Assembly: GCA_903877885.1 (NCBI GenBank)
Contig: CAIRFN010000006.1
Location: 3,342-67,341, forward strand
DNA length: 64,000 bases
DNA from: an uncultured Candidatus Berkelbacteria bacterium
GTDB taxonomy: Bacteria; Patescibacteriota; UBA1384; UBA12157
Direction: 5' to 3'
A model generated the notes under the pieces. It made no database searches. It saw only the letters and a program-made list of their open reading frames with translations, and was not told where the DNA came from. This document shows positions 56,223 through 57,214 of the stretch, piece after piece; position 1 is the stretch's first letter; every line of letters begins with the position of its first letter. The position numbers and the translations under genes are program-made.

Positions 56223-57214
56223 TGATTTAAGTATAGCAAATATTTATTTTTCCTGGTACACTTTTCGCCGAGGTAAAAGAAAAACATCGGAGTTGGAAGA
56301 GTATCAATATTATTTAGAAAAAAATATTTTAGAACTTTATGGACGGCTAAATGATGGTAACTATCAGCATGGTGGCTATAGAAGTTTTTGGGTTTCTGAT
56401 TCCAAACGCCGTAAAATCGCCGTCGCTTCAATCGATGATAGAATAGTCCATCGTCTGTTATACGAATTTCTCGTGAGTATTTTTGATAAAACTTTTATTT
56501 ATGATGCTTGGAGTTGCCGGAAAAATAAGGGTATTGTCGGCGCAATCGATAGGGCTCAAGAATTTTCCTATAAATATAAAGACGGATATTTCTGGAAAGC
56601 GGATATTAAAAAATTCTTTGATTATGTTGACCACGAAAATCTTCGGCAGTTCCTTTTTAGAAGAGTTGGTTGCGAGAACGCTAAAAGATTATTAAATGAG
56701 GTGATCTCAAGTTACGGACTCGAGAGAGAGAGAGAGAGAGAGAGAGAGAGAGAGAGACGGGCTGCGGCCCTACTTACCCGCCGGCAGGCGGGGAATACCA
56801 ATCGGAAATTTGACCAGCCAGATTTTTGCCAATATTTATCTTAATGAACTCGACCGGTTTGTAAAACATGGTTTAAAAGCCAAAGCTTATTTAAGATATG
56901 GTGACGATTTTGCTATCTTCTCGCATGATTTAGACGAACTTCGTGACATGAGGCTGAAAACAATCGAATTCATTACTAATCATTTAAAATTGATTTTGAA
57001 TTCAAGAGCTGATTCTATTCATAAGACCAAACAAGGACTTTATTTTCTAGGTGTTCGTATTTATCCCAACGGGCGAAGATTATCTAATCGAAACAGGGGA
57101 AGAGTTTTTCGCAGGTTAAATAACCGGAATATATCCGGCTATCGAGGAATAATTAACCGGCATGATCATAAAAAGTTGAGAGAGTTTGATTGGGCTGTTA
57201 AAGATTTGATTTAA
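56203..57214 (+). CDS. DGR reverse transcriptase, interrupted by a frameshift within a (GA)18 tract (two overlapping ORFs 56203..56844 and 56810..57214)
   Basis: ORF1 carries RT motifs 1-2 (…DRIVHRLLY…DAWSCRKNKG…FDYVDHENL…). ORF2 carries the DGR-RT hallmark GIPIGNLTSQIFANIYLNELD (seen in frame 2 just upstream of its Met) and catalytic YGDDF. Confidence 0.8.
56722..56757. repeat. (GA)18 dinucleotide microsatellite inside the RT gene
   Basis: 36 nt of perfect GA repeat. Both reading frames are open from 56705 to 56844; (GA)19 or (GA)16 would join the two RT ORFs in frame. Confidence 0.9.

Follow-up and report, generated by a model that had tools for sequence, protein, structure and literature searches.

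The stretch analysed here (the window) comprises 64,000 nt of contig CAIRFN010000006.1 from an uncultured Candidatus Berkelbacteria bacterium. It carries a diversity-generating retroelement (DGR), whose reverse transcriptase (RT) gene is divided between two reading frames at a (GA)18 microsatellite. Our best reading, which we hold with moderate confidence, is that the tract represents a conserved and reversible contingency switch, biased towards the OFF state, on the RT of DGRs of the type found in the Candidate Phyla Radiation (CPR, Patescibacteria). An ON/OFF contingency switch had already been suggested by an earlier inspection of the letters of this DNA (hereafter the sequence-only reading). 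That suggestion stood in part: tract lengths vary, ER linkers are present in homologues, and otherwise intact genes with a simple sequence repeat (SSR) at this site recur. The part that did not stand is local, as no ON allele was seen in this population. For this window, it is safest to state that the RT is OFF in every assembly, that the tract is length-unstable, and that an insertion sequence (IS) may silence the DGR regardless.

The two halves of the reverse transcriptase

The features of the divided gene are as follows.

56203 to 56844, + strand: N-terminal half (N-half) of the RT, an open reading frame (ORF) in frame 1 from the ATG at 56203; 213 aa at (GA)18; motifs 1, 2, 2a and 3 (DIKKFFD)
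56722 to 56757, + strand: (GA)18 microsatellite, the sole link between the two RT frames; in-frame translation (ER)n
56758 to 57214, + strand: C-terminal half (C-half) of the RT in frame 2, open from 56705, stop codon at 57212-57214; insert tail DGLRPYLPAGRR, motif 4 GIPIGNLTSQ, motif 5 YGDDF, motifs 6-7 and thumb
56758 to 56793, + strand: GC-rich insert tail, 81% GC, compared with 37% GC in the window

The usual RT numbering, as we take it, places motifs 1-3 in the N-half and motifs 4-7 with the thumb in the C-half. The position of motif 2a was taken from PMC5758913. The sequence-only reading had assigned motifs 1-2 to frame 1. They are indeed there, but the assignment was understated, as motif 3 with the first catalytic Asp (in DIKKFFD) lies in the same frame. 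Frame 2 encodes GIPIGNLTSQIFANIYLNELD and YLRYGDDF. The frame of the N-half passes through the tract out of frame, continues for 29 unrelated codons and then reaches a stop codon. Ahead of motif 4, the C-half lacks a start codon of its own, and gene callers give it only as a 134-aa remnant from a TTG at 56810. The uninterrupted RT ORF that characterizes a DGR is absent at (GA)18, with the two halves in frames 1 and 2.

The length of the segment "CTC (GA)n C" has to be divisible by 3, so that only tracts of n = 1 mod 3 (16, 19, 22 and so on) fuse the halves, and the product is then a single ORF with an (ER)m-D linker. The sequence-only reading was therefore exact on two points: the tract at 56722..56757 is the only link between the RT frames, and the addition of one GA unit or the removal of two would join them through an (ER)n linker. 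The unit is not divisible by three, lies inside an ORF and sets the frame by its length, as in known SSR contingency loci. Tandem Repeats Finder gave the tract a score of 72 and found no other dinucleotide array in the 64 kb window, where the next GA run of at least four units was just (GA)4 at 44032.

Apart from the tract, the gene seemed intact. The virtually fused protein matched Pfam RVT_1 across the junction (residues 67-287, E = 1e-15). AlphaFold2 predicted its fold with a mean pLDDT of 85 and a pTM of 0.78, and the insert (residues 174-196) was the sole low-confidence stretch. A tblastn search with an intact relative, P0001, covered both halves at 78% and 72% identity and revealed no further stop or shift; thus, the additional stop codons that the sequence-only reading had named, together with a uniform tract, as the sign of a dead pseudogene were found in neither half. 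The same search found no second RT copy in the window. The signature of DGR-clade RTs, motif 4 of the form [I/L]GxxxSQ together with YxDD, is present as GIPIGNLTSQ and YGDDF. The best solved relative was the Bordetella RT (bRT, 8ub7; E = 4e-35), which also carries the [I/L]GxxxSQ motif 4. The insert loop sits between motif 3 and motif 4, where bRT has merely VLPDEGV (the five-residue loop PDEGV).

Among the 116 best full-length homologues, 27 had ER or RE runs of 4-11 aa at the same position, such as AERERERERERETFGRAKK-GIPIGN and TRERERERERERRRRALKT-GIPIGN, and one homologue had THTHTH. These variable runs indicate that the loop tolerates variable-length inserts encoded by repeats. The sequence-only reading had asked whether related RTs contain an ER-repeat linker; they do, in frame, with variable length and exactly at the position of the tract.

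Tract length and reading frame

Comparison among assemblies of the same genome, which bears on the heterogeneity that the sequence-only reading had proposed to look for in raw reads, revealed tracts of 17, 18 and 20 units in otherwise identical DNA. Read from the DNA, the tract had 18 units in the window and L004, 17 in L001/L005 and L007, and 20 in L006, with identical flanks. L001 and the window aligned over 8171 nt with no mismatches and one gap, which was the GA unit. At the protein level, the 213-aa N-half, equivalent to (GA)18, was called on seven contigs and the 202-aa N-half, equivalent to (GA)17, on three, while a 204-aa N-half that implies (GA)20 was called on at least two further contigs. 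The tract is thus polymorphic among otherwise identical genomes, as in contingency loci, though 17 and 20 units are also k-mer collapse values.

None of these lengths joins the frames. The 134-aa C-half remnant was called on 17-18 contigs. Among contigs of 2 kb or more, the neighbouring PLD-like gene fills exactly the same contig-size blocks as the C-half ORF that was called on its own, which means that every one of these contigs has a split RT. Assemblies of this population contained OFF alleles only, and ON and OFF alleles occurred side by side only when related lineages were compared. The homology matches included no near-identical full-length RT. Exact look-ups of the hypothetical ON products (n = 13-25) also found none, but this test is weak, as the real 213-aa product was also missing from that collection.

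We then considered relatives. In an unbiased sample of GTDB species representatives (L008-L087), the frame was read from the spacing, modulo 3, that separates motif 3 (D[IV]xKFFD) from motif 4 (G[IM]PIGNLTSQ). About 50 RT loci without an SSR in the loop were all in frame. Seven RTs were shifted, and all seven were shifted in this loop at an SSR.

Shifted RTs: L046 (GA)10; L073 (AG)8; L075 (GA)9; L061 (AC)17; L074 (CAGT)4; L056 A9; L085 (AG)6
In-frame RTs with a loop SSR: L012 (AG)6; L017 (GA)9; L032 (AG)9; L025 (GACA)8

SSRs were enriched in the loop, with 9 of 46 falling within 2% of 476 kb (p = 2.5e-7). The occurrence of different repeat motifs at one loop across lineages implies selection for mutability, or at least a uniquely permissive site. 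The varied repeats do not point to a conserved ER peptide. A further (AC)13 repeat, read in frame as THTHTHTHT, was seen in L010 (3379-3404) in another RT loop, before motif 3. In L029, the RT ORF stops at a G9 run (3886-3894), about 25 codons short of the usual C-terminus.

Metagenomes were scanned for (GA)8 followed, after 8-38 nt, by sequence coding for GIPIGNLTSQ. At least 120 loci matched (L088-L207), with tracts of (GA)8-27, and the counts given for this family here and below are among the 120 matches listed. They formed 115 clusters at 90% identity, and pseudo-replication was ruled out on this basis. In 93 loci motif 3 was also on the contig; 14 of them were in frame, 45 were shifted by +1 and 34 by +2. 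The in-frame fraction was significantly below the expected 1/3 (binomial test, p = 1e-4) and was 5/17 at n = 8-9, 5/27 at n = 10-11, 3/29 at n = 12-14 and 1/20 at n >= 15. Both halves were open in 74 of the 79 shifted loci, and a change of tract length alone would repair 78 of them. Three pairs of loci had flanks that were 100% identical and tracts of different lengths: L153 and L204 (15 and 13 units), L157 and L178 (10 and 16), and L105 and L115 (14 and 10). We also considered a split RT of two chains as a general solution and rejected it, since in the window and in 33 of the 79 OFF loci no codon ahead of motif 4 could start the C-half. Translation of the C-half is unlikely to begin independently.

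These data bear on the possibility that the true tract is in frame, or much longer, and was mis-reported through sequencing or assembly. (GA)17 and (GA)20 measure 34 and 40 nt, the shortest even lengths that exceed k = 33 and k = 39, respectively, which we infer to be what a de Bruijn collapse would produce. Coverage is low on many contigs, and a Logan contig of the same genome (L209) ends inside the tract (1713-1739), evidence that the repeat breaks assemblies with short k. However, (GA)18 is not a collapse value for common sets of k and was reported on seven contigs, and one pipeline yielded 17 units in some samples and 18 in another. Across the family, the distribution of tract lengths was smooth with a mode of 10 and without k-mer spikes at 11 or 17, and most tracts were shorter than the smallest k of usual assemblers. 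Moreover, collapse would give random frames rather than an in-frame deficit. Mis-assembly, which the sequence-only reading had offered as one alternative, is unlikely as a full account, since none of the assembled lengths is in frame and the whole family shows the pattern; we consider an artefact of this kind very improbable.

The retroelement locus

The other components of the DGR, including its template repeat (TR) and variable repeats (VRs), are listed below. TR and VRs were compared over 114 nt.

54710 to 54823, + strand: TR
54301 to 54414, + strand: VR1, at the 3′ end of target gene 53516..54421; 21 of 29 TR adenines changed, 1 non-A difference
49678 to 49791, + strand: VR2, at the 3′ end of paralogous target gene 48881..49798; 18 of 29 TR adenines changed, 1 non-A difference
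55884 to 56222, - strand: avd accessory gene, bAvd-like four-helix bundle (PF22296, E = 2.5e-10)
54843 to 55884, - strand: IS of 1042 bp with perfect 26-nt terminal inverted repeats, between the TR and the 3′ end of avd

The DGR is genuine, as the TR/VR differences at both VRs lie near-exclusively at TR adenines, with one non-A site each, and an Avd accessory protein is encoded beside the RT. The avd gene is divergent from the RT gene and overlaps its start by 20 nt, and relatives have the same layout. The VR1-bearing target protein was one exact sequence on 18 contigs. OFF therefore appears silent here, and the consensus sequences show no ongoing diversification by the DGR in this population.

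The IS begins 20 nt after the TR. It is missing from the relative L003, which has an intact RT with (GA)4 and in which the TR directly adjoins avd. The complex of Bordetella bRT and Avd requires about 140 nt of RNA downstream of the TR (10.1101/2023.10.23.563531), which makes the IS a plausible second lesion in this genome. The transposase frame of the IS, about 307 codons, has no start unless there is a shift at an A7 run just past an upstream ATG near 55780-55795. In assembly ERZ1426562, the same IS adjoins an acyltransferase gene instead of the TR, so that the IS is multi-copy or the region has been rearranged or mis-joined.

The stretch just upstream of the TR (AAATGAATTTCCACGTGAGCCCCGTTCATTCCGATTTGAGAGGAATGAAA; 54590-54650 in the window and 90-150 in L003) holds an inverted repeat. 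It is conserved with L003, a 72%-identical relative, about as well as the TR itself, and could represent a cis RNA element of the DGR on the upstream side. A search of 48-60 kb against Rfam revealed one tRNA and nothing else. Seven tandem paralogs of about 300 aa, without a Pfam match, occupy 47979-54421; a VR matching the TR is found at the end of just two, 48881..49798 and 53516..54421. Immediately on the 3′ side of the RT, a PLD-like nuclease-family gene (- strand) and a small HTH_3 regulator at 57247-58254 are kept in all assemblies of this genome.

Switching, recoding and decay

If the tract is a contingency switch, it would act as a hypermutable microsatellite, placed in a surface loop of the DGR RT that is structurally permissive. 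Slipped-strand mispairing would add or remove GA units, 2 nt per step. Only tracts of n = 1 mod 3 would join motifs 1-3 to the catalytic C-half and give an active RT with an (ER)m loop. At the other two classes of length, translation would end soon after the tract, so that no RT would be made and adenine mutagenesis of both VRs would stop. The OFF state may dominate because an active DGR is costly. We infer slippage, the enzymatic silence of OFF alleles, their reversibility and selection for switchability from the pattern of the sequences. The case for switching at the level of DNA is built on tract polymorphism between identical flanks, the use of both wrong frames, the variety of repeat motifs, the intact and constrained halves, and a VR that is static when the RT is OFF.

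Selection on the C-half was compared with the expectation of a dead gene. Between the window, (GA)18, and L150, (GA)11, both OFF, dN was 0.112 and dS 0.965, which gave a dN/dS of 0.12. The median dN/dS of the C-half was 0.11 between OFF loci (n = 6), 0.17 in mixed pairs (n = 17) and 0.19 between in-frame loci (n = 4). There is no relaxed selection downstream of the shift, and purifying selection acts on an OFF gene that is intact but for the tract, as in a contingency locus. The pairs are few and divergent (dS 0.6-1.5), and very recent decay would not show in them, which counts against the switch.

Decay itself would mean that neutral expansion of GA in a tolerant loop changed the length and killed the RT, and that the shifted copies are recent pseudogenes in which the tract drifts. 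All local alleles are OFF with a static VR, and an IS has landed between the TR and avd. In the GTDB sample, three of the nine loci with an SSR of at least seven dinucleotide or four tetranucleotide units (or a 9-nt mononucleotide run) were in frame, equal to the neutral 1/3, and a curated survey of DGRs dropped more than half of its candidates for premature stops and similar defects (PMC5758913). All these observations would fit decay. However, nearly all OFF loci in metagenomes are fully open in both halves and need a change of the tract only, dN/dS is not relaxed, and different SSR motifs arose independently at the same loop. In addition, in-frame copies with long tracts are significantly rarer than the neutral 1/3. 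A dead gene would be indifferent to frame; the deficit implies that frame matters and that ON is mostly disfavoured. The sequence-only reading had also allowed that the RT is simply inactivated. A loop SSR that is recurrent and usually out of frame, in a gene otherwise intact and under purifying selection, argues against this, and we judge decay improbable.

Another explanation is recoding, in which the out-of-frame tract is the normal form of expression. Ribosomes stalled by a stem would slip 2 nt on AGA/GAG, or RNA polymerase would slip, and a low dose of full-length RT would be produced at any genomic tract length. Out-of-frame loci are the majority (79/93), yet both halves are open and constrained. 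A shift of 2 nt on (GA)n would re-create the same codons and keep the codon-anticodon pairing. The tail that follows the tract is also suggestive. In the window, it is predicted to fold as two hairpins (GGGC-UGCG-GCCC and CCCGCC-GGCA-GGCGGG), with a minimum free energy of -23.7 kcal/mol and z = -2.45. The tail is GC-rich at synonymous sites: across the family, GC content at third codon positions was 0.57 in the tail and 0.40 in the C-half (p = 2e-11). In 64 of the 120 loci, a stem of 4 bp or more started 0-18 nt, mostly 0-9 nt, after the tract. In about half of the loci the anatomy therefore resembles that of a frameshift site, with a stem close behind a slip-prone repeat.

Nevertheless, the hairpins are not universal, and their median z relative to shuffled sequences was about 0. 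Programmed frameshifting has a fixed frame relation, which was not found here, as 45 loci would have to shift one way and 34 the opposite way. Sequences that are otherwise identical differ in the frame required (L153 and L204, and the window alleles of 17, 18 and 20 units). The AC, CAGT, GACA and poly-A repeats in the loop suit indels in DNA better than one ribosomal mechanism, and the VR is static on 18 contigs. To our knowledge, slippage during elongation on dinucleotide repeats is also without precedent in bacteria. We regard recoding as unlikely, although it is the least unlikely of the rivals. A frame-agnostic variant, in which the tract and hairpin tail form a bidirectional -2/+2 recoding site, with the stall caused by the stem or by bound RT/Avd and the tract length tuning the dose of RT, seems distinctly improbable.

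The tails were also examined in their own right. Those of L088-L207 are anomalously GC-rich and often palindromic, and the tail of the window uses codons such as CGG, CCC, GCC and GGC, which are rare in a 37% GC genome. UNCG tetraloops were tried as a common feature and rejected. They fit the window, c(UGCG)g, and L002, c(UACG)g, but most stems of the family are GC palindromes with 3-nt loops, and their stability is not above that of shuffled sequences.

Several further observations weigh against a contingency switch. First, no ON allele was found in this population (about 17-18 contigs), where neutral drift predicts about 1/3 ON. Second, the share of in-frame loci drops with tract length, while a simple model of a cost of ON combined with faster switching predicts the opposite. 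The trend could be understood if, in a population polymorphic for length, a mildly disfavoured ON length would seldom be the commonest allele and an assembly would report the commonest; this would be an extra argument, which the switch needs. Third, DNA-level switching does not explain the GC-rich and often hairpin-forming tail. Fourth, the local lengths of 17 and 20 equal de Bruijn collapse lengths, and part of the local heterogeneity could be assembly noise. Finally, by analogy with Bordetella, the IS probably removes a downstream Sp-like RNA; with it, the DGR may be silent here whatever the length of the tract, which would perhaps be irrelevant in this genome.

SSR contingency loci are well known in bacteria, such as the tetranucleotide repeats of mod (phasevarions) and lic in Haemophilus and Neisseria, the CT/GA repeats of outer-membrane protein genes in Helicobacter pylori and the poly-G tracts of Campylobacter. 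The tract described here resembles them in that an intragenic repeat with a unit that is not a multiple of three varies in length among genomes that are otherwise the same, frames of both kinds (ON and OFF) are seen, the gene is kept intact elsewhere, and several motifs serve the same purpose. It differs in that the gated gene is a DGR RT, itself an engine of targeted hypermutation, and not a surface or restriction-modification gene. The repeat lies in the middle of the gene, in a loop of the catalytic domain, and would be translated as (ER)n when ON, whereas known repeats lie near the 5′ end. The uncultivated CPR-type hosts, the strong OFF bias and the GC-rich tail beside the repeat are further differences.

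Like the DGR of Bordetella phage BPP-1 (8ub7), the locus has an Avd homologue, A-site TR/VR differences, VRs at the 3′ ends of targets and the [I/L]GxxxSQ motif 4. Unlike it, the locus has a repeat-encoded insert in the loop, an avd gene that is divergent on the opposite strand, an interrupted RT ORF, two VRs in an array of seven paralogs, and an IS that separates the TR from avd and RT.

With programmed frameshifting (retroviral gag-pol, IS3 orfAB), the locus shares one enzyme encoded over two overlapping frames and, in many copies, a slip-prone site followed by a GC-rich stem. It differs in lacking a conserved heptamer, in an offset that varies within a population and in a slip site that is a long, length-polymorphic microsatellite. 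In insect endosymbionts, polymerase slippage rescues frameshifted genes at poly(A) tracts. These reduced-genome symbionts similarly keep frameshifted genes at repeat tracts under selection, but there homopolymers are scattered over many genes, while here di- and tetranucleotide repeats occur in one loop of one gene family.

Phase variation by SSRs is well known, as are DGRs; a combination of the two that is conserved throughout a large clade and strongly OFF-biased appears new. The sequence-only reading knew of no described precedent for a DGR switch. Likewise, our search of the literature on DGRs together with phase variation, SSRs, microsatellites, frameshifts or CPR found no description of a repeat-gated DGR RT, although the searchable literature is incomplete. 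The pattern could have been hidden, since the survey mentioned above discarded more than half of the candidate DGRs.

DGRs are the most extreme natural diversifiers of proteins, and how cells restrain them is largely unknown. If the contingency switch is real, CPR bacteria would run a two-tier system, in which a stochastic, heritable and reversible switch picks the cells that mutate their ligand-binding proteins. Mutational load would be limited, while the capacity to diversify would be kept. A prediction is that in-frame tract alleles co-occur with VR heterogeneity within a sample. RTs split at this loop are routinely dropped as pseudogenes in annotation, and censuses of CPR DGRs probably undercount live systems. 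That in-frame long tracts should be so scarce when both halves are conserved is in itself a surprising population-genetic signal.

In a more distant clade of RTs (34-40% identity to the query), repeats were also seen at a second hot spot, some 560 nt before motif 4. It consists of poly-G of 9-11 or (GT)8-10 and precedes the conserved N-terminus of the RT by 25-45 nt, within the short junction that separates the RT from an apparent divergent avd (- strand). The frame across the hot spot differs between loci.

Loci with the second hot spot: L031, L033, L036, L037, L041-L043, L045, L047, L048, L050, L051, L053, L057, L062, L067, L069-L072, L078, L079, L083; also L035, L052, L066

This hot spot could be a further phase-variation tract for avd and the RT.

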